NCBI GenBank assembly: GCA_042571305.1
Contig: JBHPHS010000002.1
Coordinates: forward strand, 1-55,194
Direction of reading: 5' to 3'
Source: Patescibacteria group bacterium
Lineage (GTDB): Bacteria; Patescibacteriota; Microgenomatia; UBA8517
DNA: 55,194 nucleotides
Both the position numbers and the translations under genes were made by a program. Shown piece after piece: positions 21,878 through 48,631 of this stretch (the stretch's first letter is position 1; each line of letters begins with the position of its first letter). Below the pieces are notes generated by a model. It did not search any database, was not told the DNA's origin, and saw nothing but the letters and a program-made list of their open reading frames with translations.

Positions 21878-22764
21878 TATCCAAAAAACCCGAGCTTTCA
21901 ATAATAATATTAGGTTACAACACCAAAGCACTTCTTGATGATTGCTTAAGCTCCATTAAGAAACATAGCGATGAGGTATCCCTTGAGGTTATTGTTTCAG
22001 ACAATGCATCAAGTGACGGGAGTGTAGATATGGTAAGAGAAAAATACCCTTGGGCTAAACTGACGCAAGGACCCAATGTAGGCTTTTCAAAAGGAAATAA
22101 TAGAGCAAGAAAACTTACAAGGGGAAAGATGGTTTTATTTCTAAACCCTGACACAAAAATAAATAAGAATGTATTAAAAGAAACCACCAATTACCTTAAA
22201 AAGTACAGAGATGTAGGAGCTCTAAGCTGTAAACTTGTATTACCGTCAGGCAAACTAGACAAAGATGCCAGGCGACGCTTTCCAACTCCGGGAATTGCTT
22301 TTGCAAAGCTATTTTTAGGAAATGGAAGAAAATATTGGTATGAGGATATTTCTGCAAACAAGGTACATGAGGTAGATGCAATTGAGGGAGCTTTTATATT
22401 AACTTGGAAGAAAATTCTTGATAGTGTTGGTTGGTTTGATGAGGATTACTTTTTTAATGGAGAGGACATTGATCTTTGTTGGAAAATACGTCAAAAAGGA
22501 TGGAAGATAATCTATTATCCTAAGGTGTTTATATATCATCTTAAAGGTGTAACAACCGGAAAAAGTAAGCAATGGAAGGTAAAAAGCTCACTTGTTAAAA
22601 GAATAAAAATAAAACTAATTACCGTTGAATCTATGGAATTGTTTTTCAGAAAGAATCTTTGGAAAAGATATCCAATTTTCTTTGATTGGTTTGTAATTTT
22701 GGGTATTAATATCTTTAAAGTACTAAGAACCGCAAGGGTTGTCATTTCTTCAATAACAAAATGA
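21874..22764 (+). CDS. GT2 family glycosyltransferase with a C-terminal hydrophobic helix
   Basis: LSIIILGYNTKALLDDCLSSI...VSDNASSDGS, LFLNPDT and GEDIDLCWK motifs. Confidence 0.85.
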   Translation: MISKKPELSIIILGYNTKALLDDCLSSIKKHSDEVSLEVIVSDNASSDGSVDMVREKYPWAKLTQGPNVGFSKGNNRARKLTRGKMVLFLNPDTKINKNVLKETTNYLKKYRDVGALSCKLVLPSGKLDKDARRRFPTPGIAFAKLFLGNGRKYWYEDISANKVHEVDAIEGAFILTWKKILDSVGWFDEDYFFNGEDIDLCWKIRQKGWKIIYYPKVFIYHLKGVTTGKSKQWKVKSSLVKRIKIKLITVESMELFFRKNLWKRYPIFFDWFVILGINIFKVLRTARVVISSITK

Positions 22765-23282
22765 TAATACTAATAGATGCAAGGCTATACGGCCCTGAGC
22801 ATACAGGAAACGGTAGGTATACCATGAATTTGATTTCTGAACTAACCAAATTAGATAAAAAGAACAAGTATTTACTTCTTCTTAGAAAAAAATACTATAA
22901 AAAACTGAAGCTTCCACCAAATTGGACTAAGATCTTAGCTGATTTTAAGCACTATAGCCTTACTGAGCAGATCAAGTTGCCTTTTATTATAAATAAATCT
23001 AAACCCGATCTGGTTCATTTTCCGCATTTTAATATTCCCATTTTTTATTTTGGGAAATATATTGTGACAATACATGATATGACTATGCATAAATTTAGAG
23101 GAAAAGATGCAACAACCAGGAAACTTCCATTATATCAATTGTGGAGGTTGGGATATTATCTTTCCTTTGCGAAAGCGGTTTATGGGTCAAAAAGAATTAT
23201 TGTTCCAAGTGAAGCAGTTAAGCAGGAGATATTAAGTTTTTACAAAGTAAATCAAGGAAAAGTCAAAGTAGTTTATGAATAA
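22761..23282 (+). CDS. GT4 glycosyltransferase, N-terminal Rossmann half only (split gene)
   Basis: 173 aa (MIILIDARLYGPEHTGNGRYTMNL...) ending at VKVVYE, exactly where GT4 enzymes pass from the acceptor domain to the donor domain. Confidence 0.7.
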   Translation: MIILIDARLYGPEHTGNGRYTMNLISELTKLDKKNKYLLLLRKKYYKKLKLPPNWTKILADFKHYSLTEQIKLPFIINKSKPDLVHFPHFNIPIFYFGKYIVTIHDMTMHKFRGKDATTRKLPLYQLWRLGYYLSFAKAVYGSKRIIVPSEAVKQEILSFYKVNQGKVKVVYE

Positions 23283-23838
23283 GAAAAGCACAGGTAAATA
23301 TTTTCTTTATGTCGGTAATGCCTATCCTCATAAAAATCTGAACAGATTGGTTGAGGCGATAGTTTTATTGAATAAAGAATCAAACGAAAAGATATTGTTA
23401 AAGATTGTTTCCGCAAGGGGTGTTTTTACAAAAAGACTTCTTGGTTTGGTTGATAGGCTAGAAGCAAACGAATTTGTTGAGCTGTTGGGGTTTGTTAGTG
23501 ACAAAGACCTAGAAAAATTATATAAAAATGCCTTAGCTTTTGTGTTTCCATCACTTTCAGAAGGTTTTGGTCTTCCTGGGGTTGAAGCAATCACTGCAAA
23601 GACTCCATTATTAGCTTCAGATATTCCGGTTTTTAAAGAAGTTTATAAAGATAATGCAACATATTTTAACCCTCTTGATTTTTCAGCAATAGAAAGAACG
23701 ATGAGGGATGTATTTAATATGCCAAACAGCCAAAGAGAAGAAATGGTTAAAAAAGCATCAAAGTTTATTGAAAGATATTCATGGGCTAAAATGGCTAAAG
23801 AAACCTTGAAAATATATGAAAGTTGCACTCGTTTATGA
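23275..23838 (+). CDS. GT4 glycosyltransferase, C-terminal (donor-binding) half only (split gene)
   Basis: 187 aa starting MNKKSTGKYFLYVGNAYPHKN and carrying SEGFGLPGVEAITAKTPLLASD. It overlaps the N-half ORF by 8 nt in a different frame. Confidence 0.75.
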   Translation: MNKKSTGKYFLYVGNAYPHKNLNRLVEAIVLLNKESNEKILLKIVSARGVFTKRLLGLVDRLEANEFVELLGFVSDKDLEKLYKNALAFVFPSLSEGFGLPGVEAITAKTPLLASDIPVFKEVYKDNATYFNPLDFSAIERTMRDVFNMPNSQREEMVKKASKFIERYSWAKMAKETLKIYESCTRL

Positions 23839-31306: not shown

Positions 31307-32314
31307 GAAGTTTTGGATTTGAGAGAAATTGTTATTTCCCGTTTTAGGCAAAAGAATATATTGGCCGCTAGAGTTATTAGAAGAGCTAAGCATGTTGTCC
31401 TCCGTAAGATGGATTTGGGTAATTTTATATTCGTTGGGGTTTGTAAATAAGGCAAGGAGGTTATTAACTGCTTGAATATCCAAATCAGAGTTAACCATAC
31501 TGAAAAGTGAGTTTATTATTGAACTTGAGTTTTGTAAGGCATTTAGGGAAATCAGCTTATTGGTAATTGCGGAAAGGACTGCAAACTGTCTTTCTGAGCG
31601 GCCAAAGTCACTATCCCCATGACGGGATCGTACAAATTTAAGGGCAGTCTCTCCATCAATCTTAATAGGTCCTTTGTCAAAATGAAGTTGTTCATATCTA
31701 CATTCAAATTGTTTTTCTAGTTCAAATCCGAAGTATTTTGCTTTAAAGTCATCAATCTTTTCTTGATCATATCCACAGGTATTATTTTCCTCGCCTTTTA
31801 TGGGATAAAATTCGTCAGTAAATGAGTTGGGAACATCAACTTCCAGTCCACCAAGAGTGTCAATTATTTTTTCAAAGTTGGAAAAATCAACAGCAACAAA
31901 ATAGTTAGCAGGAAGGTCTGTAACTTGGTTAACAATGTTTTTTGATTTATCACCTCCACCCTGAACGAAAGCTTCGTTTATTTTATTATTTATATTTTCG
32001 ATCCAAAGATCTCTGGGTATTGAAACAAGTGCTGCGCTTTTGTTTTCCGGATTTGCATAAAATAAGATAATGCTATCCGTAAGATTTCCTCCATCATGAC
32101 CTGCTCCTCCGTAACCTAATAAAACTACACCAAGCTCTTGAGAAGAATTTATCTCTTTAGAAGTATTTTCCACAAATTGGTTAAAAGGTAAAACAGCTGA
32201 GCCTTTGTTGGTTGGGAGATTTTTTCCGAGAATTAAATATGTTGACAAAAACCCTAAAACAAATAAAGATATTAATATGACAATAAATAAAAGTCTATTT
32301 TTAAAAAAACCCAT
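31280..32314 (-). CDS. LytR-CpsA-Psr (LCP) family glycopolymer-to-peptidoglycan ligase
   Basis: N-terminal TM helix, with LTDSIILFYANPENKSAALVSIPRDLW and RSRHGDSDFGRSERQ motifs. Confidence 0.85.
   Translation of the reverse strand: MGFFKNRLLFIVILISLFVLGFLSTYLILGKNLPTNKGSAVLPFNQFVENTSKEINSSQELGVVLLGYGGAGHDGGNLTDSIILFYANPENKSAALVSIPRDLWIENINNKINEAFVQGGGDKSKNIVNQVTDLPANYFVAVDFSNFEKIIDTLGGLEVDVPNSFTDEFYPIKGEENNTCGYDQEKIDDFKAKYFGFELEKQFECRYEQLHFDKGPIKIDGETALKFVRSRHGDSDFGRSERQFAVLSAITNKLISLNALQNSSSIINSLFSMVNSDLDIQAVNNLLALFTNPNEYKITQIHLTEDNMLSSSNNSSGQYILLPKTGNNNFSQIQNFLKEAMLNP
32242..32270 (+). promoter_or_regulatory. TTGACA-17 nt-AAAGAT promoter-like element upstream of tspO, inside the LCP coding region
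   Basis: TTGACA lies at 32242-32247 and AAAGAT at 32265-32270. The predicted +1 is 32277, the A of an in-frame tspO ATG. Confidence 0.3.
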
Positions 32315-32774
32315 GCTTCTATTTTACTCTATATTTCTTTGTCAGTTAGCTGGAATATTAGGTTCCGTTTTTACAATATCTTCAATACCTACCTGGTATG
32401 CGGGACTAATTAAACCTTCTTTTAACCCACCCGGTTGGCTTTTTGGACCAGTATGGACAATTTTATATACCTTAATGGGAATAAGCTTGTTTCTTATTTG
32501 GAAAAAGGGGTTTAACAAAAAAAGAGTTAAGGATGCAATTGTCATTTTTGCAATTCAGCTTGGCTTAAATGCTATATGGTCGCCAATATTTTTTGGTTTA
32601 AAAAACACACTTTTAGCATTATTCGTGATAGTTGTACTTTTATTTTTTTTATTAAGAACTATATTTTCTTTTTATAAAATAAACAAAACCGCAAGCTATC
32701 TTTTAATTCCTTACCTTTTGTGGAGTAGCTTTGCAACAGTTCTTAACTTCTCAATCTGGTTTTTAAATAGATAG
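32277..32774 (+). CDS. tspO: TspO/MBR family tryptophan-rich sensory protein
   Basis: WYAGLIKPSFNPPGWLFGPVWTILYTLMGISLFLIW is the TspO signature, and five TM helices are present. The start is ambiguous: ATG 32277 or ATG 32313 (the ORF-track TTG at 32205 is unlikely). Confidence 0.8.
   Translation: MTINKSLFLKKPMLLFYSIFLCQLAGILGSVFTISSIPTWYAGLIKPSFNPPGWLFGPVWTILYTLMGISLFLIWKKGFNKKRVKDAIVIFAIQLGLNAIWSPIFFGLKNTLLALFVIVVLLFFLLRTIFSFYKINKTASYLLIPYLLWSSFATVLNFSIWFLNR
32321..32326 (-). promoter_or_regulatory. -10-like box TAAAAT (minus strand) 6 nt before the LCP ATG
   Basis: The minus strand reads TAAAATagaagcATG, so the predicted +1 coincides with the A of the start codon. The box lies inside the tspO coding region. 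Confidence 0.3.
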
Positions 32775-38209: not shown

Positions 38210-39487
38210 ATGGCTAAATTTATAATTAAGGGAGGCAAGGCACTTGAGGGGAGGGTGAAGCTTTCAGGCAACAAAAATGCTGCTCTTAAACTCATTCCTG
38301 CCGCACTTTTGTCAGATAAACCCTCTACTTTTACTAATGTTCCTGACATTTTGGATGTTTCCGTGATACTTGAAATAATTAATAAATTAGGAGTTGGTGT
38401 GGAACAAAAAGATAACACTGTTATCATTGATCCTTCCACTATTAAATCCAGTGAACCAGATAGCGCACTTTGTGCTAAAATTCGTGCCTCAGTTGTTTTA
38501 GCTGCACCTCTTTTGGCTAGATTTGGCAAAACCACAATAACTCCACCCGGAGGAGACCAGATTGGAGATAGACTTTTAGAAACTCATTTTGGTTTGATGC
38601 AGAAAATGGGGGTTGAGATTAAAAGGGAAGATGGGAGGTACTTTCTTTCTTGGAAGAAAAAAGGACCAAGCGATATTTTTCTTGATGAATCTTCTGTCAC
38701 TGCAACAGAGATGGGTTTGATGCTTGCTTCAAGTATAAACCATGAAACAAAAATTGAAGACGCTGCGGCTGAACCCCATGTAGTGGATTTGGCTAATTAC
38801 TTGCAAAAGATGGGGGCCACCATTCATGGAGCGGGAACGGGTAATTTAGTAATTAAAGGGAATGGTAAATTAGTGGGGTGTGAGCACAGGGTTATTCCTG
38901 ACCATATTGAAGGAGGAACCTTTGCCATTGCTGCAGCTATTACACAAGGGAGAATAACCATCGGGGATTTTCAAGCCGATAATTACAAGATGATTTTAAG
39001 TTACCTTTCTGACATGGGAGTCAAATATAAAATCGGCAAAAACACACTTGAGGTGTTTCCTTCCAAACTTAAGGTAAAAAGCAAAAGAAGAGAGTTTCAG
39101 ACACGTCCCTGGCCGGGTTTTCCTACAGATTTGATGAGCCCGTTTATCGTTCTGGCAACCCAGTGTGAAGGAACTGTACTTTGCCATGACTGGATGTATG
39201 AGTGGAGAATATTTTTTGTCGATGATCTAAAAAGCATGGGAGCGAAGATATTTATAGCTGACCCACACAGAGTAATTATAAGTGGACCAACCAAGCTTTT
39301 GGCAGATAGGATTTATTGCAAAGATATCCGAGCGGGTATATCTATGATTTTGGCGGCACTTGTAGCCGAAGGAACAAGTGAAATTGAAAATATTGAAGTA
39401 GCACAAAGAGGGTATGAAAAGATTGAGGAGAGACTAATGAATTTGGGAGCCGACATTAAAATAGTGGACGATGACAAAGGGAATTGA
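38210..39487 (+). CDS. murA: UDP-N-acetylglucosamine 1-carboxyvinyltransferase MurA (Asp in place of the fosfomycin-target Cys)
   Basis: It aligns end to end with E. coli MurA from memory (SGNKNAAL, IPDHIEGGTF, DIRAGISMILAAL, RGYEKIEERL). The active-site loop is PPGGDQIGDR versus E. coli LPGGCTIGAR. Confidence 0.95.
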   Translation: MAKFIIKGGKALEGRVKLSGNKNAALKLIPAALLSDKPSTFTNVPDILDVSVILEIINKLGVGVEQKDNTVIIDPSTIKSSEPDSALCAKIRASVVLAAPLLARFGKTTITPPGGDQIGDRLLETHFGLMQKMGVEIKREDGRYFLSWKKKGPSDIFLDESSVTATEMGLMLASSINHETKIEDAAAEPHVVDLANYLQKMGATIHGAGTGNLVIKGNGKLVGCEHRVIPDHIEGGTFAIAAAITQGRITIGDFQADNYKMILSYLSDMGVKYKIGKNTLEVFPSKLKVKSKRREFQTRPWPGFPTDLMSPFIVLATQCEGTVLCHDWMYEWRIFFVDDLKSMGAKIFIADPHRVIISGPTKLLADRIYCKDIRAGISMILAALVAEGTSEIENIEVAQRGYEKIEERLMNLGADIKIVDDDKGN

Positions 39488-41432
39488 ATCAGACTCCAGA
39501 AAGGTTTTGCCCGGTTTTACCTTCGTAGCTATACGGGGAATAACTCACGATGGGCACAACTTTATTAAAGAAGCACTAAACAATGGGGCTACAAAAATTG
39601 TAGGTGAGAAAAATAGACCTTCCTGGCTTCCTGATAGGATTGAGTATTTAGAAGTAAATGATTCTCGTGAAGCGTTAGGTAAACTAGCTTCAGATTTTTA
39701 TGACAACCCTTCAAAGAAATTAACACTAATAGGAGTAACCGGTACAAAAGGCAAAACCACTACAGCTCATTTGATTTATCATATCTTAACCAGCCTCGGA
39801 CAAAAGGTTGGTTTAGTTTCATCAATTTCAGTTCCGGGCCTGCATGTAACAACTCCTGATGTAGTTTTGTTTCATAAAATGCTTAAACAGATGGTTGATA
39901 AGGGGTGTAAATATGCCGTAATTGAAGTTAGCTCCCACGGAATTGATCAGAAAAGAATCGCTGGGGCAAAATTTGATGTTGGGGTTTTAACCAATATTGC
40001 TTCCGAGCATCTTGATTATCACAAAAACTTCTCAGAGTATAAAAATGCAAAAATGTCATTTATAAATTCAACAAAAATAAAGATATATGCACCAAAAACT
40101 ACAAAACTGAATATTTTACCTGGAGAGTTTAACAATCTTAATGCTGAAGCTGCTTTAAAAACAGTAAAAGCTTTAGGTTTTAATTTTAAAAAAGCAAAGG
40201 TTTCTGTTTGTTCGTTTGAATTACCTGAAGGCAGACTACAGGAAATAAAAAATAGCCTAGGTATAAAAATTATCATTGATTTTGCCCACACCCCCGATTC
40301 TCTTAATGCTGTTCTTACCCACTTAAAGGAGGTAACCAAAAACAAACTAATTGTTGTGTTTGGATGTGCGGGAGAAAGAGACAGTAAGAAGCGCTCTAAG
40401 ATGGGTAGAATATCAACACAAATTGCAGATTTATCTATATTTACGGCAGAGGATCCAAGAAGCGAGAGAGTCTTTGATATTTTAAAGACCATGAAATCCA
40501 AAGCCTTAAAAGGTACGTTTGTTGAAATTGCGGAAAGGGCTGAAGCGATTGCATATGGACTATCAATTGTTAAAAAAGGAGACACACTTGCGGTATTGGG
40601 AAAAGGGCATGAAAAAAGTATGGCATATAAAGGCTATGAACACCCATGGAGCGACAAAGAACTAATTATGAGCTTACTTAACGCAAAAGATAATACCGCA
40701 GTTATTGTTTTAGCAGCAGGAAAAGGAACAAGAATGAAAAATAGTAAACCTAAGGTGCTGCGTGAGATATGTGCTCGTCCAATGATTTCCTATACTCTTG
40801 AAAGTTTACGCAAAGCTGGTTTTAGCGAAATCGTGGTTGTTGTTTCTTATAAGAAGGATGTGGTTTTAAGAAGGGTCAAAGGAGCAATTAAAGCTGCGGT
40901 TCAGAAAAATTCTAAGGGTGGTACTGCGGATGCTGCAAAGGCGGGTCTTTTCGAAGTTTCAAAAAACGCAACAACAGTCGTTGTAATTAATGGGGATGAT
41001 AGTGCTTTTTATAAACCAGATACGATTAATGAGGTTGTTGAAACACATTGTAAAACCAAATCTAGCTTGACCTTTGTAAGTTTAGAAAAAGACAATCCCC
41101 ACGGCTTGGGTAGAGTTGTTAGGGATAATAAAGGAAACCTTCTTACAATTGTTGAGGAAAAAGATGCAACTGATACACAAAGAAAAATTAAGGAGATAAA
41201 TGACGGTCTTTATGTTTTTAAAAGAAAATGGCTTGAGGCAAATATTAAGAAGGTTAAATTAAGTCCCCAGGGAGAGTACTATTTAGTGGATTTGGTCAAA
41301 ATAGCACTTTCTCAGAAAGAGAAAGTTGTTGTTTATAAACTTAAAGATTCTAATCAGTGGCAAGGTATCAATACTCCCGAACAACTTTTAGAAGCTCAAA
41401 AAAAGATGAAAAAAAGGTTAGGTTATGAATAG
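39471..41432 (+). CDS. murE: Fusion protein: MurE (UDP-MurNAc-L-Ala-D-Glu:diamino acid ligase) plus the GlmU-type N-terminal uridyltransferase domain
   Basis: The MurE part carries SDSRKVLPGFTFVAIRG, GVTGTKGKTTT, DFAHTPDSL, GCAGERD and EDPR. From about 40698 the sequence is AVIVLAAGKGTRMKNSKPKVL...IVEEKDATDTQRKIKEINDGL...PQGEYYLVDLV, which closely matches E. coli GlmU residues ~5-230. No hexapeptide acetyltransferase domain follows. Confidence 0.85.
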   Translation: MTKGIESDSRKVLPGFTFVAIRGITHDGHNFIKEALNNGATKIVGEKNRPSWLPDRIEYLEVNDSREALGKLASDFYDNPSKKLTLIGVTGTKGKTTTAHLIYHILTSLGQKVGLVSSISVPGLHVTTPDVVLFHKMLKQMVDKGCKYAVIEVSSHGIDQKRIAGAKFDVGVLTNIASEHLDYHKNFSEYKNAKMSFINSTKIKIYAPKTTKLNILPGEFNNLNAEAALKTVKALGFNFKKAKVSVCSFELPEGRLQEIKNSLGIKIIIDFAHTPDSLNAVLTHLKEVTKNKLIVVFGCAGERDSKKRSKMGRISTQIADLSIFTAEDPRSERVFDILKTMKSKALKGTFVEIAERAEAIAYGLSIVKKGDTLAVLGKGHEKSMAYKGYEHPWSDKELIMSLLNAKDNTAVIVLAAGKGTRMKNSKPKVLREICARPMISYTLESLRKAGFSEIVVVVSYKKDVVLRRVKGAIKAAVQKNSKGGTADAAKAGLFEVSKNATTVVVINGDDSAFYKPDTINEVVETHCKTKSSLTFVSLEKDNPHGLGRVVRDNKGNLLTIVEEKDATDTQRKIKEINDGLYVFKRKWLEANIKKVKLSPQGEYYLVDLVKIALSQKEKVVVYKLKDSNQWQGINTPEQLLEAQKKMKKRLGYE

Positions 41433-42420
41433 AGATAAAATCGTAACATTTGGTGGAGGAACTGGGCAATTTCATCTTTTATGTGGATTAAGAGAAATCT
41501 ATGATACAAGTTTAATAACCGCTGTTGCTGGTTCCTGGGATAGTGGAGGAAGTTCAGGCAGGTTAAGAACTGAACTTGGTGTACTGCCACCAGGAGATAT
41601 CAGGCGCTGTATGTTAGCTTTGATGGAGGATGAGAAACAAAGACAAATTGCTCAAAGACTTTTTGATGACAGACTGGAGGAAATTGCAGGACCTCTTAAG
41701 GGTCACTCTTTAGGTAATCTAATAACAGCAAGGCTTGACCATATCTATAGAGGCCAAGATAGAGGAATTGAGGCAGAAAGGTGTCTTTTTAGGGTGAAAG
41801 CAAGGGTCTTACCAGTAAGCTTAACCGAATTGCAGTTGGTTGCCGAAACTGCAAAAGGCACCAAAGTTACAGGGGAAACAAACATAGATTTTCGTGTAAA
41901 GGATAAAAATTTTAATCCAAAAGACAGGATCGTTCGCATATATTTTGATACTCGTGCTGATCCAAACCCAGAGGTAATAAAGGCAGTAGAAGAAGCTGAA
42001 AAGATAATTTTTGCACCAGGAGATCTTTACACAAGTGTTTTGCCACATCTTTTGGTTGATGAGGTAAAAGAAGCAATAATTGCATCAAAAGCAAAGTTGA
42101 TTTTTGTACTTAATTTGGCAACCAAAGCAGGTGAGACTGATTCATACAAAGCATCAGATTTTCTAGAAAGTTTCCTTTTTTATCTTGATGCACCAGGAAG
42201 ACTTAACTATTTCTTGGTTAATGAAAATCATTTTGATCGTGAGATTATTAAAATTTATAAAGGTGAAGGTCAAAACCTAGTTGAAGTTGATACAGTCAAA
42301 ATTAAAAAACTTGAACCAAAATTAAAAATAGTTAAAAAACCAATTTCCGTTTATCTTAAGAAAGAACATTTGCTGCGACACGACCCTATAAAATTAGCAA
42401 AAGCTATTCTGAAGCTTTAG
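41425..42420 (+). CDS. yvcK: YvcK/CofD-family (UPF0052) protein
   Basis: IVTFGGGTGQFHLLCGLRE...AVAGSWDSGGSSGRLRTELGVLPPGDIRRC is the family signature. Confidence 0.8.
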   Translation: MNRDKIVTFGGGTGQFHLLCGLREIYDTSLITAVAGSWDSGGSSGRLRTELGVLPPGDIRRCMLALMEDEKQRQIAQRLFDDRLEEIAGPLKGHSLGNLITARLDHIYRGQDRGIEAERCLFRVKARVLPVSLTELQLVAETAKGTKVTGETNIDFRVKDKNFNPKDRIVRIYFDTRADPNPEVIKAVEEAEKIIFAPGDLYTSVLPHLLVDEVKEAIIASKAKLIFVLNLATKAGETDSYKASDFLESFLFYLDAPGRLNYFLVNENHFDREIIKIYKGEGQNLVEVDTVKIKKLEPKLKIVKKPISVYLKKEHLLRHDPIKLAKAILKL

Positions 42421-43087
42421 AGGCTGCTTGATTGTTTAGATAATGACCGATTAATCCGGGTGTGCGGGCTATAATAAATACCGCGTTTCCAAGCCTTGCA
42501 GGCCAGTCGAAAGTGCACAAAATTGAAGCAATTACACCGTCGATGTTAACAGGAATAGGTTTGCCTTTGGCCAGACTGATTTCTTTTTCAATTTGTTTAG
42601 CAATATTAATATAAAAATCATCCATATTTTCCTTTTGTGCCAGATTAAAGATAAATTCTGCTCTTGGATCAATGGTGTAAATTCTGTGTCCAAGCCCAGG
42701 TATTTTACGGTCTTGTTTTAGACACTCATTAACCATTTTTTTAATGTTTAAATTATCTTTTTTGATTTTATAAAAAAGCTCCATTGCAGGTTTTATTGCC
42801 CCACCGTGATCATCGTTTATTTGTAAAATTGCCTGAGAAAGTGATACCGAAATACTTTTTGCTTTTTTAGCATCTTTTATAATTTCGATTGCTGAAGGGG
42901 TTTGACTTCCATGATCAATAGAAATATTTAAAATGGTTTCAAATAGCTTAAGTTGGGATTTGTTAGGTTTTTTTTCAGAAAGAAGCAGATAAATCATGTA
43001 GGCAAAGTTTTTTTTGGAAACAAGCTTTAGTAAAGAAGTGTTACCAAAGTACGGTTTATTATTTTTATGTGTTACAACGGTTGACAT
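42404..43087 (-). CDS. Citryl-CoA lyase-like protein (citrate-synthase-fold module of ATP-citrate lyase)
   Basis: SIDHGSQTPSA...INDDHGGAIKPAMELFYK, PGLGHRIYTIDPRAEF, PVNIDGVIASIL and FIIARTPGLIGHYLNNQ line up with the human ACLY C-terminal module (TADHGPAVSG...GDRFGGALDAAAKMFSK, GIGHRVKSINNPDMRV, LNVDGLIGVAF, FVLGRSMGFIGHYLDQK) as recalled. Confidence 0.75.
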   Translation of the reverse strand: MSTVVTHKNNKPYFGNTSLLKLVSKKNFAYMIYLLLSEKKPNKSQLKLFETILNISIDHGSQTPSAIEIIKDAKKAKSISVSLSQAILQINDDHGGAIKPAMELFYKIKKDNLNIKKMVNECLKQDRKIPGLGHRIYTIDPRAEFIFNLAQKENMDDFYINIAKQIEKEISLAKGKPIPVNIDGVIASILCTFDWPARLGNAVFIIARTPGLIGHYLNNQAASKASE

Positions 43088-43989
43088 TGGATTGCTTTTT
43101 TAATTAACGATGGTATTTTATCAAAGCTCTCGGCCACCAATACTCCAGCTTTTTTTAATATCCTTCTTTTTTCGGAAGGGATTCCTTTCCTTCCTTCTAT
43201 TATCGCACCGGCGTGACCAAATTGCACATCCGAAGGAAGACTAGCTGTAAATTCTCCGGCAATGAATGCAATAACGGGTTTTTTAATTAAACCTTTTTCT
43301 ACAAAAGAAGCAACTCTTTCTTCATATGTTCCTCCCAATTCTCCAAAGATTACAGATGCTTTGGTTTTGACATCTTTCTCAAGTGCCAGAAGAAAATCCA
43401 CAAAATCTGTACAGATTATTCTATCTCCTCCTATTCCAACGGCCCAAGAAACCCCAAGACCATGATTCTTAAGAAGAAGCCCTACCTCTGACGTCATTCC
43501 TCCAGATTTGGAAATTACTGCAATATTTCCATCTGCGTATACCCTTTCAGGTGACAAACCACCGATTGCCCCGATTTTTAGTTTCCTGTGAGGTGCAATT
43601 AAACCAACTGAGCTTGGTCCGATTACATTTGCACCTATCTTTTGGGAGTAAGCATAAATGTAGGCAGCGTCTTTAACTGGAACCTTTTCTGCACCAATTA
43701 AAATAAATTTAATTCCAGCATCAAGTGCTTCGATTGTGGCGTCTTTTGTAAACAATGGTGGTACAAACTGTACGGAGGCATCGATTGGACCTAACTTTTT
43801 TAGGACCTCGTCAACGGTATTAAAAATTGGAACTCCGTGTAGATTTTGTCCTCCTTTGCCGGGGGTAACCCCCGCAATAATTTTTGTCCCATAATTTAAT
43901 ATTCCGACAAGTGAGGATCTTCCCTCGGACCCTGTTATACCTTGACCGATTATTTTTGAATTATTTGGAAGTTTCATATTTTTTTGCAA
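43072..43989 (-). CDS. ACL/citryl-CoA synthetase alpha-like subunit (CoA-binding plus CoA-ligase domains, phosphohistidine loop)
   Basis: IIGQGITGSEG...GVTPGKGG, SKSGGMTSEV (ACL-type GGM, versus SucD SRSGTLTYE) and DVQFGHAGAIIEG...KKAGVLVAESFDKIPSLI (compare ACLY VQFGHAGA...KEAGVFVPRSFDELGEII). Confidence 0.8.
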   Translation of the reverse strand: MQKNMKLPNNSKIIGQGITGSEGRSSLVGILNYGTKIIAGVTPGKGGQNLHGVPIFNTVDEVLKKLGPIDASVQFVPPLFTKDATIEALDAGIKFILIGAEKVPVKDAAYIYAYSQKIGANVIGPSSVGLIAPHRKLKIGAIGGLSPERVYADGNIAVISKSGGMTSEVGLLLKNHGLGVSWAVGIGGDRIICTDFVDFLLALEKDVKTKASVIFGELGGTYEERVASFVEKGLIKKPVIAFIAGEFTASLPSDVQFGHAGAIIEGRKGIPSEKRRILKKAGVLVAESFDKIPSLIKKAIQCQPL

Positions 43990-45106
43990 GTTTTGCCATT
44001 ATTTTGGCAGATTCAGTTATTGAAATTTCTTGACCGTAAAGATGAAGATTAAAATCTTTAACTTTCTTAAGCATCTCAAATGCTTCCTTATCTCTTGGAC
44101 CACCCCTTCTTATCAGAATCGGATATTTTGGTTTAGGTTTAACCTTTCTTAAAGCTTGAAGAAAGCCCGAGAGCGTTTCGTAAATATCGGTAAAATTTGC
44201 AACAGCGCCAACCACCCAAAGACCTTTAAGATATTTTTTGGAAAGAACAATTTCGGTTAATTTTTCTACCTTTTCTCTTGGTGGATTGCCAGAATATTCG
44301 GTGTAGTTTGCTGGTTTTCCACCGGATGCAATTATGGCGTCCATAGCGGTAAGAGAAGCTCCTCCACCAGAGGCAAGTACGGCAATATTTCCAGGAAGAT
44401 CGAAAAATGTAGATCCAGCTGATCCTCGATAGTCATTTTGATCAATATTTTTTGCTCTTTTTTCTCTTATTGTAGGAGTATATCCTGGAGTAGACCTAAG
44501 CTTATAATTCCAGTTTTTGTGTCTGGCAATTGCCGTATCATCAATCTTTAATTTTGCATCAACAGCAACAAGTTCTCCTTCTTTTGTTTCCACAAAAGGA
44601 TTAATTTCTAAAAGTAGTAGATCATTATCAATAAATATTTTTATTAATTTAGGTAGTAGTTTGTAAATCTTTTCAGGTACGTACTTTTGAGGAACTTTTA
44701 ATGAAAGGGTGTTGAATGGAATTGATTTACTAATCCTTTTTTCAATACCTTCTCCTCCGTTTGTGGAAAATACTATCACAGGGCTTCGATAATCCGTATC
44801 ATAGGAAATAGAAATATAGTATTCTTGTTTTATATCTATCTTCTCTTCAACCAAAACCTTACTGACTTTTTCTCCGTGAATTGTCAATGCAAAGATGTTT
44901 GATAGCTTCTTTTTTAAATCCTTATTAGAATTTATTTGGATAATTCCTCCCGCTTTTTTCCTTTTACCTGTTAGTACTTGTGCTTTAAGAATAAATGGGA
45001 GTTTAAGGTTGATATTTTGCTTTGGAGAGCTAATTAATTGAGATTTAGGAATATCTATACCGCCTTCTGATAATATTTTCTTTCCCTCGAATTCATATAG
45101 AATCAT
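43961..45106 (-). CDS. ACL/citryl-CoA synthetase beta-like subunit (ATP-grasp)
   Basis: MILYEFEGKKILSEGGI start (compare SucC MNLHEYQAK). PANYTEYSGNPPREKV resembles the ACL-type ANYGEYSGAP motif rather than SucC ANFLDVGGGA. The start is placed at ATG 45106; the ORF-track start at 45115 is a GTG three codons upstream. Confidence 0.8.
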   Translation of the reverse strand: MILYEFEGKKILSEGGIDIPKSQLISSPKQNINLKLPFILKAQVLTGKRKKAGGIIQINSNKDLKKKLSNIFALTIHGEKVSKVLVEEKIDIKQEYYISISYDTDYRSPVIVFSTNGGEGIEKRISKSIPFNTLSLKVPQKYVPEKIYKLLPKLIKIFIDNDLLLLEINPFVETKEGELVAVDAKLKIDDTAIARHKNWNYKLRSTPGYTPTIREKRAKNIDQNDYRGSAGSTFFDLPGNIAVLASGGGASLTAMDAIIASGGKPANYTEYSGNPPREKVEKLTEIVLSKKYLKGLWVVGAVANFTDIYETLSGFLQALRKVKPKPKYPILIRRGGPRDKEAFEMLKKVKDFNLHLYGQEISITESAKIMAKLAKKYETSK

Positions 45107-45179
45107 ATAGAACACAATTTACAATAAGGACAGCTTTCTTACAAGTAAGTATTTACGCGATAATAATAGCCTCATGAGG

Positions 45180-45185
45180 TATAAT
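45180..45185 (+). promoter_or_regulatory. TATAAT box 6 nt before the murC ATG
   Basis: The sequence is gagGTATAATtgccttATG. The predicted +1 is 45192, the A of the start codon that gives MIKNIHFMGIGGSG. Confidence 0.35.
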
Positions 45186-45191
45186 TGCCTT

Positions 45192-46475
45192 ATGATTAAG
45201 AATATTCACTTTATGGGCATAGGAGGTAGTGGGGTTGCTGGGGTAGCCGCTCTTGCTTCACAAATGGGTTTTGGAGTTACAGGATGTGATTTGGAAAAAA
45301 ATACAGCTTATTCTAAAAACGTAGTTCAGGGACACAGCAGGGATCACCTTAGGGGAGTTGATTTGGTTGTAGCAAGCCCTGCGGTTTATTTTCAAAACTC
45401 CAATCACCCTGAATTTTTGGAAGCTAAAAAACAAGGGAAGCTAATAACCTGGCAGGAGTTTTTAGGGGATTATCTAACAAAAGGTAAAAAAGTAATTTGT
45501 GTTGCCGGAACGCATGGAAAATCTACAACAACAGCAATGGTGGCAAAACTGTTAATTGATGCAAAGTTTGACCCTTTGGCTTTGGTTGGTGCAGGGGTTT
45601 TTAAGTGGCGAGGAAATAGCAGGTTTGGAAAAGGTGAATATTTTGTTATCGAAGCAGATGAGTTTTTTGATAGTTTTTTAAATTACCACCCAGAGATAAT
45701 AATTTTAAACAATATTGAGTTTGACCATCCTGATTATTTTAAAAGTGAAACCCAGCTTTTTAATTCTTATAAGAGCTTTATAGAAAACTTTATTGGAGAA
45801 AAGGTTTTGATTGTCAATTCAGATGATCTTGGTGTTAATAAACTTCTAAAAATGATTAATTTAGACGATTTTAAAATCATCAAATATAGTCCAAAGAAAG
45901 AATGTTTGGGGCTTAGGCTAAAAGTTTTCGGAAAACATAATATTGCAAATGCTTTGGGTGTAAAAGCTTTAGGAAAGTATCTTGGAATAAGTAAACAAAT
46001 TATAAATGATTCTCTTTCGACGTTTGAAGGAATTGAAAGAAGGATGCAGCTTTTAGGAATGACCAAAAAAGGTGTTTTGATATACGATGATTATGCTCAT
46101 CATCCAACCGCAATTTCTGCAACACTGCAGGCGCTTAGAGAAAAATACCCTAACAAACGTATTTGGGCAATTGTTGAGGCACATGGTTATGAAAGAACAA
46201 ATACGCTATTAGGTTCATATAAAGGTGTGTTTTCTCAAGTAGACAAAGTTATTGTAGGTCCGATATTTAAAGCAAGAGATAAAAAGACATTTGGTGTAAC
46301 ACCTGAGAAAATAGTCAAAGCTTCCAAACACAAAAATGCATTAGCAGCTAATTCATTTAAACAAATTCAATTAATCTTGAACAAAGAAGTAAAGAGTGAT
46401 GATATTATTTTGGTTATGGGTGCAGGAAAAAGCTATTTATGGTCAAGAAAACTTTTAAAGAACTTACAACAATAA
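45192..46475 (+). CDS. murC: UDP-N-acetylmuramate--L-alanine ligase MurC
   Basis: IHFMGIGGSGVAGVAALA, VAGTHGKSTTTAM and DDYAHHP motifs. An alternative upstream ATG lies at 45174. Confidence 0.9.
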   Translation: MIKNIHFMGIGGSGVAGVAALASQMGFGVTGCDLEKNTAYSKNVVQGHSRDHLRGVDLVVASPAVYFQNSNHPEFLEAKKQGKLITWQEFLGDYLTKGKKVICVAGTHGKSTTTAMVAKLLIDAKFDPLALVGAGVFKWRGNSRFGKGEYFVIEADEFFDSFLNYHPEIIILNNIEFDHPDYFKSETQLFNSYKSFIENFIGEKVLIVNSDDLGVNKLLKMINLDDFKIIKYSPKKECLGLRLKVFGKHNIANALGVKALGKYLGISKQIINDSLSTFEGIERRMQLLGMTKKGVLIYDDYAHHPTAISATLQALREKYPNKRIWAIVEAHGYERTNTLLGSYKGVFSQVDKVIVGPIFKARDKKTFGVTPEKIVKASKHKNALAANSFKQIQLILNKEVKSDDIILVMGAGKSYLWSRKLLKNLQQ

Positions 46476-48631
46476 GAACAGGTGGAGAGATTAGCTATTT
46501 TAAGCCGGTTAAAAACAAAACTGAGCTTAAGAAGGCAGTATCTTATGCCAAAGAAAAAAACTTACCAATTTTTATACTGGGTGGTGGTAGTGATATTTTA
46601 GCATCAGATAGGAATTTTAACGGAGTTGCTATAAAGTGTCTAAATAATAAAATTTACATTAAGGGTAATGTAATTAAAGCCGAAGCAGGGGTAATCTGGG
46701 ATAATTTAGTTTGTGAAGCGATATCTGATAATCTACAAGGAATAGAAAAGCTTTCAGGAATTCCAGGAACAGTTGGTGCAGCACCTGTCCAAAATATCGG
46801 AGCATATGGTCAGGAGCTTTCCGATGTTTTTGTAAGCTTAACCGCCTATGATATCAAAAATGAGAAATTTGTTACGTTTAAAAAGAAAGACTGTAAATTT
46901 GGTTACAGAGAAAGTGTATTTAAGAAAAAATCACATTGGCAAAAATATATTATTTGGGAAGTAACTATTAAGCTTAAAATAAATAATAAACTTGGTCTTT
47001 TTATAATCCGAAATCACATTCTAAATACAAGAGACAAAAAGATTGACGATTGGAAAAAGGTTCCTAATGCAGGTTCGTTTTTCAAAAACCCAATTGTAGA
47101 TGAAATCAAACTTAAATATTTGCTGAAAAAATATCCAAATATGCCGTTTTTTAAGCATGGTAATAAATTTAAACTCTCTGCTGGTTGGTTTGTTGAAAAA
47201 GCAGGATGGAAAGGAAAATCTATGGGAGAGGCTATGGTTTCTGGTAAACATGCACTAATAATTACAAATCCTAAAGGTAAAGCTTTTGCAAAAGAAATAA
47301 AATATCTTGCAGACAAAGTAGCTATAGATGTATATAAAAAGTTTAATATCAAGCTTACCCCTGAGGTGCAGCTTATTAATTTTGTCTGCATCGAAAAGAA
47401 AAAGAATGTCGCTATTTTAGGTTATGGAATAGAAGGTAAAGATGTAAAAAAGTTTATTAAGAGTCGTGGGCTTAAGGTAGATATATTAGATCGGAAGTAT
47501 GATAAATATTACTTAAAGGATTTAGACAAATATGACACCATTATCCGTTCACCTGGAGTTTATCGATATTCACCGGAACTTGTTAAGGCAGAAAAAGCGG
47601 GGGTTGAAATAACAAGTGCAATCAAGATATTTTTTGATTTGTGCCCGGGAAAGATTATCGGTGTAACCGGTACAAAAGGCAAAGGAACAACTTCAACTTT
47701 AATTTATGAGATATTAAAAAACGCCGGTTATAATGTTTATTTAGCCGGAAATATTGGCAAACCATACCTTGAGCTTCTTCCTAGATTAACTAAAAAATCC
47801 TGGGTTGTTATGGAAATGTCATCATTTCAGCTAATAGATATGCAAAAAAGTCCAGTAATTTCTGTTGTTTTAAACATTACATCTGATCACCTTGATTGGC
47901 ACAAAAGTCAAAAAGAGTATGTTGAAGCAAAGAAAAACATTGTCAAATACCAATTAAAAAATGATTGGGCGGTCTTGAATAAAGACTATAAAAAATCCGA
48001 AAGCTTTGAAAAGTATACGAAAGCAAGGGTAATTTTCTTTTCCAAAAACAAATTGGAAAATGAGTATAGAAAAGATCTACTTCTTAGGGGTGTGCATAAT
48101 CTAGAAAATATTGCAGCAGCAGTTGCTGTTGGGAAAATATTGAAAATCAAAAGTGAAATTATGCTTGATACTGTAAGAAGCTTCAAAGGGCTTGAGCATA
48201 GATTGGAGCTTGTCAGACGTGTTAATGGAGTCACTTTTTATAATGACTCTTTTGCAACAGGACCACAACCAACCATTGCTGCAATTAAGTCATTTACCGA
48301 GCCAATTACGATTATTTTGGGTGGAAGTAAAAAAGGATTGAATTATAAAGAACTTGGTAAGGCAATAAAAATGACAAAAAACATTAAAAATATTATTTTA
48401 ATTGGTACAACAGCTAGTAAAATTGTAAAAAGCTTAGGTAATAAAGAAACTGATATTAAAATATACAATTTAGGTTTTACGCCAATGAAAGAAATTGTGG
48501 CAAAAGCATATCATGTGTCTAAAAAAGGAAGTGTAGTTATATTATCTCCTGCTTCAGCATCTTTTGATATGTTTGAAAATTACAAGGATCGAGGCAACCA
48601 GTTTAAAAAAGCTGTCCTAGCTTTGAAATAA
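46439..48631 (+). CDS. Fusion protein: MurB (UDP-N-acetylenolpyruvoylglucosamine reductase) plus MurD (D-glutamate-adding ligase)
   Basis: The MurB part carries TTIRTGGE, GGGSDIL, IPGTVGAAPVQNIGAYG, YRESVFK, NAGSFFKNP, SAGWFVEKAGWKG and PEVQLINF. After about 47390 comes MurD: VAILGYGIEGKD, GVTGTKGKGTTST, EMSSFQL, NITSDHLDWH, GLEHRLE, NDSFATGP and SPASASFDMFENYKDRGNQF. It is a single frame with no stop or in-frame ATG at the junction. Confidence 0.85.
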   Translation: MVKKTFKELTTIRTGGEISYFKPVKNKTELKKAVSYAKEKNLPIFILGGGSDILASDRNFNGVAIKCLNNKIYIKGNVIKAEAGVIWDNLVCEAISDNLQGIEKLSGIPGTVGAAPVQNIGAYGQELSDVFVSLTAYDIKNEKFVTFKKKDCKFGYRESVFKKKSHWQKYIIWEVTIKLKINNKLGLFIIRNHILNTRDKKIDDWKKVPNAGSFFKNPIVDEIKLKYLLKKYPNMPFFKHGNKFKLSAGWFVEKAGWKGKSMGEAMVSGKHALIITNPKGKAFAKEIKYLADKVAIDVYKKFNIKLTPEVQLINFVCIEKKKNVAILGYGIEGKDVKKFIKSRGLKVDILDRKYDKYYLKDLDKYDTIIRSPGVYRYSPELVKAEKAGVEITSAIKIFFDLCPGKIIGVTGTKGKGTTSTLIYEILKNAGYNVYLAGNIGKPYLELLPRLTKKSWVVMEMSSFQLIDMQKSPVISVVLNITSDHLDWHKSQKEYVEAKKNIVKYQLKNDWAVLNKDYKKSESFEKYTKARVIFFSKNKLENEYRKDLLLRGVHNLENIAAAVAVGKILKIKSEIMLDTVRSFKGLEHRLELVRRVNGVTFYNDSFATGPQPTIAAIKSFTEPITIILGGSKKGLNYKELGKAIKMTKNIKNIILIGTTASKIVKSLGNKETDIKIYNLGFTPMKEIVAKAYHVSKKGSVVILSPASASFDMFENYKDRGNQFKKAVLALK

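Follow-up and report, generated by a model that had tools for sequence, protein, structure and literature searches.

The region analysed here, termed the window, is the whole 55,194-nt stretch of contig JBHPHS010000002.1 from a Patescibacteria group bacterium, and genome content was judged from these ~55 kb. Its minus strand carries three overlapping genes, named ccsA-like, ccsB-like and ccl-like in this work, whose products resemble the two subunits of citryl-CoA synthetase (CCS; CcsA and CcsB) and citryl-CoA lyase (CCL; Ccl) and which are predicted to form an operon. As described in an earlier interpretation of the DNA (referred to as the sequence-only reading), the open reading frame (ORF) list gives overlaps of 29 nt between ccsA and ccsB and of 16 nt between ccsB and ccl, the latter two being in different frames, when the listed starts are used. 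The public gene call for the ccsA-like gene (P0121) comprises 381 aa and matches an ATG at 45106; this start agrees with the N-terminus of Hydrogenobacter thermophilus CcsA and is likely the true one. For the ccsB-like gene, an alternative ATG four codons downstream of the listed TTG would yield a 17-nt overlap with the ccsA-like gene instead. The trio lies antisense within a wall and division cluster, and nearly all other genes of the window are on the plus strand. In Pfam scans, the order of this cluster was mraZ, rsmH, a gene for an FtsI-type penicillin-binding protein, murA, a MurE-nucleotidyltransferase fusion and cofD/yvcK upstream of the trio, followed by murC, a MurB-MurD fusion, murI, ddl, alr, murF, mraY and ftsW. 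The flanks identified in this way agree with the previously noted position between yvcK and murC.

The CcsA-like protein, a large (beta-type) subunit, matched the Pfam models ATP-grasp_2 (PF08442; 102.9 bits) and Citrate_bind (PF16114; 90.8 bits, cut-off 26.8), and no Pfam match to Ligase_CoA (PF00549) was obtained. The reverse was found for Escherichia coli SucC, which served as control and matched PF00549 (113.9 bits) without any match to PF16114. Ranking of sequence matches in the PDB placed H. thermophilus CcsA first (6hxq_B; E-value 5.7e-46), followed by Chlorobium AclB (2.9e-39) and by beta subunits of succinyl-CoA synthetase (SCS) at 4e-32 and weaker. Three citrate-site motifs and the motif EYSGNPP were located in the protein (Table 1). 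Two of the citrate-site motifs, ANFT and RRGGP, align with N346-F347-T348 and R378-R379 of human ATP-citrate lyase (ACLY), which belong to the citrate/inhibitor pocket (numbering as in PMC9504748). Both were kept in 13 of 13 aligned sequences from the candidate phyla radiation (CPR), save for RRAGP in locus L013; the third motif, GGGAS, was replaced by GGGGS or GGGVS in four of the 13. At the positions of GGGAS, ANFT and RRGGP, SucC has GAGL, GGI(T/V)R and R(L/V)xG.

In the small (alpha-type) subunit, CcsB-like, the Pfam domains CoA_binding (PF02629), Ligase_CoA (PF00549) and Succ_CoA_lig were detected. The best PDB sequence matches of this subunit were archaeal SCS-alpha (1.5e-68) and CcsB (6hxq_A; 1.1e-65). 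The insertion IGAIGG as well as an insertion of 3-4 residues before FGHAGA are common to the CcsB-like protein and 6hxq_A and are absent from three SucD sequences. Likewise, SKSGG is common to the CcsB-like protein and CcsB, and the same three SucD sequences read SRSGT.

The third protein (Ccl-like, 227 aa) matched only the C-terminal part of the Pfam model Citrate_synt, namely positions 147-349 of 357. It scored far below the cut-offs of all NCBIfam citrate synthase models, and its best PDB sequence match was H. thermophilus Ccl (6hxp; 9.5e-34). An AlphaFold model of the protein (predicted local distance difference test, pLDDT, 89.8) was compared with solved structures using Foldseek. The best fold match was again 6hxp, with a template modelling (TM) score of 0.91 when normalised to the query and of 0.82 when normalised to the target; the lyase modules of ATP-citrate lyases (ACL) came after it with TM scores of 0.85-0.87, and citrate synthases with ~0.7. 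The lower target score fits the Ccl-like protein being shorter than 6hxp. Mutagenesis of E. coli GltA points to H229, H264, H305, R314, D362 and R387 (mature numbering) as active-site residues. In the alignment, all six of these in-chain residues were present in the Ccl-like protein, and none of them varied among 24 CPR homologues. What their equivalents do in citrate synthase has been described (bioRxiv 10.1101/2024.11.06.622199), and the counterpart of D183 in ACLY, D1026, is essential (PMC10115795).

Table 1. Features of the citryl-CoA synthetase/lyase-like locus (window coordinates; residue equivalents refer to E. coli GltA)
Feature	Position	Strand	Remarks
ccsA-like gene	43961-45115	-	384 aa, GTG start in ORF list
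GGGAS	44354-44368	-	CcsA-like, citrate-site motif
EYSGNPP	44279-44299	-	CcsA-like, motif
ANFT	44189-44200	-	CcsA-like, citrate-site motif
RRGGP	44096-44110	-	CcsA-like, citrate-site motif
ccsB-like gene	43072-43989	-	305 aa, TTG start in ORF list
IGAIGG	43558-43575	-	CcsB-like, CcsB/ACL-type insertion
SKSGG	43498-43512	-	CcsB-like
QFGHAGA	43204-43224	-	CcsB-like, phosphohistidine loop (His259)
ccl-like gene	42404-43087	-	227 aa, ATG start
H59	42911-42913	-	Ccl-like active-site residue, = GltA H229
H94	42806-42808	-	Ccl-like active-site residue, = GltA H264
GHR (133-135), in GLGHRIY	42683-42691	-	Ccl-like, H134 = GltA H305
R142	42662-42664	-	Ccl-like active-site residue, = GltA R314
NIDG (D183)	42536-42547	-	Ccl-like, D183 = GltA D362
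R208	42464-42466	-	Ccl-like active-site residue, = GltA R387
cofD/yvcK-family gene	41425-42420	+	Pfam CofD, 234.7 bits; convergent with ccl
Divergent ccsA-like/murC intergenic region	45116-45173		presumed promoter region of the trio; sequence read
murC (Mur ligase)	45174-46475	+	Pfam Mur_ligase, Mur_ligase_M, Mur_ligase_C; divergent from ccsA

With Pfam E-values of 1e-9 to 1e-29 per domain and PDB sequence matches of 1e-33 to 1e-68, the similarities of the trio cannot be attributed to chance. Neighbour-joining trees (200 bootstraps, few SucC and SucD references) grouped the large subunit with CcsA, AclB and a Nanohaloarchaeota sequence at 97%, with SucC outside, and the small subunit with CcsB at 98%, with SucD outside. 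The lyase fell with H. thermophilus Ccl at 92% and not with the lyase module of AclA. In the trees, sequences from Woesebacteria were nearest to the proteins of the window. These trees agree with a maximum-likelihood phylogeny in which CPR sequences were also placed with CCS/CCL (bioRxiv 10.1101/2022.10.25.513756). The Citrate_bind domain and the SucC control, the shared indels and motifs, the best PDB match for two of the three proteins, the structure model and the trees together thus make it a well-supported assignment, at the level of sequence comparison, that the trio is to be placed with CcsA/AclB, CcsB and Ccl and not among SucC, SucD or citrate synthase.

The sequence-only reading had proposed that the genes encode all modules of ATP-citrate lyase as three polypeptides, similar to CcsAB plus Ccl of Hydrogenobacter, and profiles, structure, motifs and trees all agree with this view. 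The profiles it had named (ATP-grasp_2, CoA_binding, Ligase_CoA, Citrate_synt) were matched, with Citrate_bind in addition, and in the trees described above the alpha and beta proteins fell outside SucCD, as it had predicted. The motifs on which it had relied were all found: (i) EYSGNPP in the beta-like subunit, cited against DVGGGA of SucC, for which E. coli SucC reads LDVGGGA; (ii) SKSGGMTSE and QFGHAGA in the alpha-like subunit, where E. coli SucD reads SRSGTLTYE in place of the former; (iii) GLGHRIY, NIDG with its Asp, and GLIGHYL in the small protein. That protein also retained its catalytic residues on proper alignment, a point which had been raised as decisive.

To establish how widespread the trio is, homologues were collected from public sequences. 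A word-indexed search with the Ccl-like protein returned 193 significant relatives, the best 120 of which were 45-61% identical and 192-237 aa long and originated from Microgenomates, including Woesebacteria and Daviesbacteria; NCBI or JGI already label several of them 'citryl-CoA lyase'. A look-up of the window Ccl itself in the contig index gave no record. The best 120 relatives of the CcsA-like protein were 55-66% identical, all with PF16114, and some bear the name 'citryl-CoA synthetase large subunit'. Scanning of species-representative genomes yielded 194 loci, of which 80 were kept, and 33 CPR loci were examined. Tightly spaced genes in the order ccsA-ccsB-ccl on the same strand were present in 31 of the 33; the contigs of the remaining two are cut off. 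Alpha subunit and lyase were separate genes in all CPR loci, and a fused form was found in Methylomirabilota (L065), where the alpha and Ccl parts reside in one ORF of 580 aa, as in AclA. The gene order ccsA-ccsB-ccl was also found in a Nanohaloarchaeota genome (L080). A metagenome scan with the Ccl protein gave four contigs of 1-2 kb, which were too short for synteny. The sequence-only reading had considered such a module unexpected in a reduced genome; this cannot be upheld, as the trio is widespread in Microgenomates of the CPR, partly named and noted in the literature. CCS/CCL homologues in CPR bacteria were already noted in 2022 (bioRxiv 10.1101/2022.10.25.513756), enzymes of the CcsAB/Ccl type have been described in Nanohaloarchaea, which are reduced DPANN archaea (PMC4766312, 2016), and DPANN archaea have been cited as a further case of CCS/CCL (PMC8091004). 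In the literature on CCS/CCL in CPR, Microgenomates, Woesebacteria or Patescibacteria, we found passing mention only, with neither a characterised CPR member nor a tested or discussed role. The trio is thus a new member of an abundant, partly annotated and already mentioned family, and the finding is mostly confirmatory.

A second, distant ccsA-ccsB-ccl-like group (L033-L079) was encountered in Anaerolineae, Aminicenantes, Acidobacteriota, Methylomirabilota, Deferribacteres-type metagenome-assembled genomes and others. In its beta subunit, VASQEQ and RLGGN replace ANFT and RRGGP, and the beta subunit of one member (L037, 7420-10780) has a Cys-rich end resembling a double [4Fe-4S] motif. The Ccl protein of this group passes the NCBIfam cut-off for citryl-CoA lyase.

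Based on these comparisons, the trio probably catalyses ATP-dependent cleavage of citrate in two steps of the CCS/CCL type and would thus be related to ATP-citrate lyase but unfused. Judged from homology, the CcsA/CcsB-like pair would use ATP to phosphorylate His259 of the alpha-type subunit. The phosphoryl group would then be transferred to citrate held at the citrate site of the beta-type subunit (GGGAS, ANFT, RRGGP), and displacement of the phosphate by CoA would give (3S)-citryl-CoA. Finally, the short lyase would split citryl-CoA into acetyl-CoA and oxaloacetate, with H94, H134 and D183 as its His/His/Asp set and with H59, R142 and R208 binding oxaloacetate. Beyond the observed gene structure, family placement, residue conservation and synteny, we infer substrate, in vivo direction and physiological role, for which citrate scavenging, a reverse ATP-yielding synthase and the provision of acetyl-CoA for amino-sugar acetylation are candidates. 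The most likely physiological role would be conversion of citrate scavenged from the environment or a host to acetyl-CoA and oxaloacetate. The Krebs cycle is generally regarded as absent from CPR bacteria.

Several observations weigh against this proposal. All three proteins score below the curated cut-offs of NCBIfam: the top matches of the large and small subunits are the SucC and SucD models (196.1 bits, cut-off 375.55, and 281.1 bits, cut-off 353.2, respectively), and the best match of the lyase is the citryl-CoA lyase model NF004869 (160.1 bits, cut-off 212). The raw score of the small subunit is slightly better to archaeal SCS-alpha than to CcsB, and few SucC and SucD references were included in the trees. 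The loci examined showed neither a citrate transporter nor an oxaloacetate-using enzyme linked to the trio, and for ACLY the part that the lyase module itself plays in catalysis is disputed (PMC10115795). Furthermore, the Ccl-like protein ends 19 residues past R208 and thus has no C-terminal tail. H. thermophilus Ccl, ACL lyase modules and citrate synthase all have this tail of ~30-40 residues, through which, in citrate synthase, the partner subunit contributes the oxaloacetate-binding Arg421' (bioRxiv 10.1101/2024.11.06.622199); alignment gave no fixed position for a counterpart of Arg421' in characterised Ccl. Since the CPR Ccl proteins are devoid of the tail which carries this residue in citrate synthase, their catalysis or substrate binding may differ.

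Shortness of the lyase is not restricted to the window. Its Ccl-like protein and 11 other aligned sequences from core Microgenomates stop 10-19 residues past the conserved Arg of ARTPGL, whereas 20-40 residues or more follow this Arg in H. thermophilus Ccl, in E. coli GltA and in the proteins of Curtissbacteria (L032) and the second group. Scores with the NCBIfam citryl-CoA lyase models were 160 for a Woesebacteria homologue, 243 for that of Nanohaloarchaeota (passing the cut-off of 212) and 258 for the Deferribacteres-type protein of the second group (passing a cut-off of 245). The absent tail and the sub-threshold score set the CPR Ccl proteins apart as a short, divergent branch within the Ccl family. 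The prediction that the small protein is of the citryl-CoA lyase type is supported by fold and active-site residues; the absence of the C-terminal tail had escaped the sequence-only reading.

The genomic contexts of the trio bear on its possible role. In most Woesebacteria, the trio follows a NUDIX-...-dnaG-rpoD series on the same strand (L081, L082, L087-L089, L096), beginning 0-115 nt past rpoD or a short ORF after rpoD, with the smallest gaps being 0-2 nt. This position directly downstream of dnaG-rpoD suggests that the trio may be expressed alongside macromolecular-synthesis genes in these bacteria. In loci of the Daviesbacteria type, the trio is followed by trpS and genes for a tRNA-binding protein, FtsH, an ABC transporter and PolA, and in L095 it is located among type-IV-secretion-like genes. 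A neighbour census of the 33 CPR loci retrieved trpS, the tRNA-binding protein gene, ftsH, the ABC transporter gene, polA, an xerC-like gene, dnaG and rpoD as recurrent, housekeeping neighbours, and otherwise no recurring transporter or metabolic partner. One Daviesbacteria FtsH homologue (L026, 10006-13200) is 1064 aa long and has an apparent intein-like insertion in its AAA domain (...GTGKCVTGDT... to ...GFINHNT...).

It is possible, if rather doubtful, that the tail-less split ATP-citrate lyase constitutes a core housekeeping enzyme of Microgenomates, either making the cells dependent on citrate from a host or the community, which would then be their main source of acetyl-CoA and oxaloacetate, or operating in reverse as an ATP-yielding synthase. 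In either direction, such an enzyme would point to a particular metabolite that is exchanged in the symbiosis of CPR bacteria, and the trio would represent an extant stage between CCS/CCL and the fused ATP-citrate lyase.

That the enzymes actually run in reverse, converting acetyl-CoA and oxaloacetate via citryl-CoA to citrate and ATP and thereby serving substrate-level phosphorylation in a fermenter, we consider unlikely. Desulfobacter postgatei is reported to run its ATP-citrate lyase in the citrate-forming, ATP-yielding direction. Moreover, H94 (equivalent to His274 of citrate synthase) is kept as in citrate synthase and Ccl, whereas the lyase module of Chlorobium ACL has Phe, and the location of the trio directly after dnaG-rpoD in most Woesebacteria suggests a core, constitutive function. 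However, the reverse reaction would require a steady supply of oxaloacetate and a fate for citrate, and in none of the loci examined was a gene for an aconitase, exporter or carboxylase linked to the trio. The same ATP would furthermore be obtained from ADP-forming acetyl-CoA synthetase or Pta-Ack, with no oxaloacetate consumed.

The sequence-only reading had suggested that the trio is a dedicated supplier of wall precursors in this lineage, with acetyl-CoA being used for GlmU-type N-acetylation and oxaloacetate being converted via aspartate to diaminopimelate or lysine; co-regulation with the mur genes might occur via the divergent murC-ccsA region. Such a role appears improbable, although its starting point, the position of the trio, is not unique to the window. 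In the window and two other lineages, the trio is located antisense between Mur ligase genes, and in L083 and L094 it is near glmU-like, nagB-like and glmS genes. The CcsA proteins of the three wall-cluster lineages share only 64-73% mutual identity, which indicates that the arrangement has persisted. When CcsA identities were used to ask whether these lineages make up a single clade, L094 and L001 were 73% identical, and window CcsA was 61-66% identical to the seven labelled sequences compared. CPR bacteria are generally reported to lack both fatty-acid synthesis and the Krebs cycle, and if so, amino-sugar acetylation might be one of their few essential anabolic uses of acetyl-CoA. Since GlmU consumes acetyl-CoA, a link to N-acetyl-sugar synthesis is conceivable in the wall-cluster sub-lineage. 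On the other hand, mur genes directly beside the trio were found in L001 only among the 33 CPR loci from reference genomes, and among the additional contigs looked up, only in L083 and L084, which belong to the L001 lineage, and in L094. Single mur or ddl matches in L025 and L027 were 5-8 kb away from the trio, and elsewhere the dnaG-rpoD or trpS/tRNA-binding protein/ftsH contexts described above prevail in most Woesebacteria and in Daviesbacteria, respectively. Being encoded on the opposite strand, the trio does not share a transcript with the mur genes. Its antisense position among wall genes appears to be a trait of one sub-lineage and not of the family: recurrence of the position in two further lineages, with glm genes nearby, lends the supplier role some weak support, and the different contexts of most CPR loci speak against it.

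The divergent region itself was inspected as well. The murC ORF extends from 45174, yet the conserved N-terminus of MurC (MIKNIHFMGIGGSG) starts at an ATG at 45192; with starts at 45106 and 45192, the spacer between ccsA and murC is thus probably ~85 nt. A consensus-based scan of positions 41800-45700 returned eight promoter-like sites versus 11.4 expected by chance and no usefully placed terminator-like site, and no promoter or regulator site shared by the trio and the mur genes was detected in it.

The same chemistry might also be directed at another hydroxy- or tricarboxylic acid, such as 2-methylcitrate or a malate- or citramalate-like acid, but this option is unlikely. The subfamily remains below all curated family cut-offs, its lyase has no tail of the kind that provides a substrate-binding Arg in citrate synthase, and the different beta pocket of the second trio group (VASQEQ, RLGGN) indicates that substrate switching occurs in the superfamily. 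Against this, the citrate-site motifs of ACLY are conserved in the trio, in a form near identical to that of Chlorobium AclB (ANFTD, EYSG[ND]P, RRGGP), and the in-chain oxaloacetate/citrate ligands of citrate synthase are all invariant.

It is very improbable that the locus consists of ordinary SucCD beside a decayed citrate synthase fragment, both being remnants of a lost Krebs cycle. The SucC and SucD models are the NCBIfam top matches of the beta and alpha proteins, some homologues are named 'succinyl-CoA synthetase beta subunit' by JGI, and the alpha protein is by score marginally nearer to archaeal SCS-alpha than to CcsB. The scores are, however, far below the SucC and SucD cut-offs (196 versus 375 and 281 versus 353 bits), and the C-terminal half of the beta protein is Citrate_bind and not Ligase_CoA, the reverse of E. 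coli SucC; motifs, indels and trees likewise exclude SucCD. The short protein is not a pseudogene fragment, because its length of ~220 aa and invariant catalytic residues are kept across the listed homologues and its modelled fold corresponds to a complete Ccl-type module. The combination of SucCD with a citrate synthase remnant was thus rejected on the Citrate_bind domain, motifs, indels, trees and the intact Ccl-type fold.

Least credible of all is an assembly chimera or recent foreign insertion: the strand switch is abrupt, the 3' ends of cofD/yvcK and the ccl-like gene overlap by 17 nt (42404-42420) and the divergent gap at 45116-45173 is short, but the GC content of the trio (0.357, window 0.356) and its GC3 (0.23-0.27, flanks 0.24-0.34) resemble the surroundings, no flanking inverted repeats or mobile-element genes were found around it apart from short chance-level repeat matches, and its proteins are closest to Woesebacteria sequences in the trees. 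The antisense placement beside Mur ligase genes moreover recurs in three other assemblies representing two further lineages, namely the 982-kb Woesebacteria chromosome OY970314.1 (L001/L083) and the Logan contigs L084 (same lineage) and L094, in all of which ccsA diverges from a Mur ligase gene while the ccl side faces convergent wall genes. Given the matching GC and GC3, the absence of flanking repeats and the same topology in these assemblies, an assembly join at the borders of the trio is unlikely.

If the proposed citrate-cleaving activity is real, the trio would offer a testable handle on how Microgenomates supply or dispose of acetyl-CoA and oxaloacetate and on which metabolites they take from partners. 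As a small, probably mesophilic system with an ACL-like citrate site, it could be used as a simple model to study what the ACLY lyase module does, which is disputed, and could shed light on how fused ACL and citrate synthase evolved from CCS/CCL.

Further features of the window were recorded independently of the trio. In its wall cluster, MurE carries a fused GlmU-like nucleotidyltransferase domain that has no acetyltransferase part (39471-41432), and MurB is fused to MurD (46439-48631), both being unusual fusions; in L083 a MurC-MurB fusion of 823 aa is found instead (3883-6354). The 5' half contains a co-directional glycan-synthesis cluster of ~25 kb (3349-28652) with genes for glycosyltransferases of families 2 and 4 (GT2, GT4), PMT_2, a Wzy_C-type protein, a flippase, a hexapeptide acyltransferase, a sugar-phosphate nucleotidyltransferase, Bac_transf and DUF4012. 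Within the window, two ORFs overlapping by 8 nt correspond to the N-terminal (Glyco_transf_4; 22761-23282) and C-terminal (Glycos_transf_1; 23275-23838) halves of a GT4 protein, which reflects either a split gene or a frameshift. A gene for a membrane protein of the TspO/MBR family (32205-32774; 178 bits) lies beside a LytR_cpsA_psr gene on the opposite strand. The ORFs 143-1297 (plus strand, 384 aa) and 1253-3172 (minus strand, 639 aa) had no Pfam match at E <= 1e-4, and no tRNA genes or Rfam matches were found in the window.

Among known systems, E. coli GltA shares the fold of the C-terminal half of the large domain and the six active-site residues with the window lyase. Citrate synthase is a full-length two-domain protein of ~370-430 aa, whereas the window lyase has 227 aa and neither the N-terminal part nor the Arg421' tail; TM scores are only ~0.7 on the query and 0.45 on the target. 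SucC and SucD belong to the same superfamily as the synthetase subunits and have the same domain order and phosphohistidine mechanism, with the window alpha protein matching SCS-alpha at 1e-57 to 1e-68. However, SucC has a C-terminal Ligase_CoA domain where the window beta protein has one of the citrate-binding type (PF16114), SucD is devoid of the two insertions of the window alpha protein, and the NCBIfam cut-offs of SucCD are not reached by the window proteins.

The large subunit of the window contains the motifs ANFTD, EYSG(N/D)P, GGGAS and RRGGP of Chlorobium limicola AclB/AclA (6hxj) in nearly exact form (2.9e-39), and the fold of the Chlorobium ACL lyase module resembles that of the window lyase (TM score 0.85-0.86). 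The gene order beta, alpha, lyase corresponds to aclB-aclA with aclA split in two. In two-subunit ACL, alpha and lyase parts are fused, whereas they are separate ORFs with a 16-nt overlap in the window, and where the window lyase has His94, Chlorobium ACL has Phe.

The three-polypeptide plan of the trio is the same as that of CcsA/CcsB (6hxq) and Ccl (6hxp) of H. thermophilus, which among solved structures are the best sequence matches of the large subunit and of the lyase and, for the latter, also the best match by fold (a low identity of 31% in the Foldseek alignment), and which share the CcsB indels and the His274-equivalent His with it. The two systems differ in the citrate loop, which reads ANFT in the window, as in ACL, and ANNT in H. 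thermophilus CcsA, and in the C-terminus of the lyase, which is ~30-40 residues shorter in the window. In Hydrogenobacter, ccl is not known to be adjacent to ccsAB. The hosts also differ, as Hydrogenobacter is an autotroph using the reductive tricarboxylic acid cycle, while the window derives from a CPR bacterium.

The lyase of Nanohaloarchaeota, unlike that of the window, passes the NCBIfam cut-off (243 versus 212) and keeps a short C-terminal tail, and the citrate-loop motifs are ANNT and RRDGP, as in Hydrogenobacter, compared with ANFT and RRGGP in the window. Outside the CPR, the closest relatives in the beta and alpha trees nevertheless come from Nanohaloarchaeota, and these reduced, likely symbiotic DPANN archaea without a Krebs cycle carry ccsA-ccsB-ccl as the window does (PMC4766312; L080).

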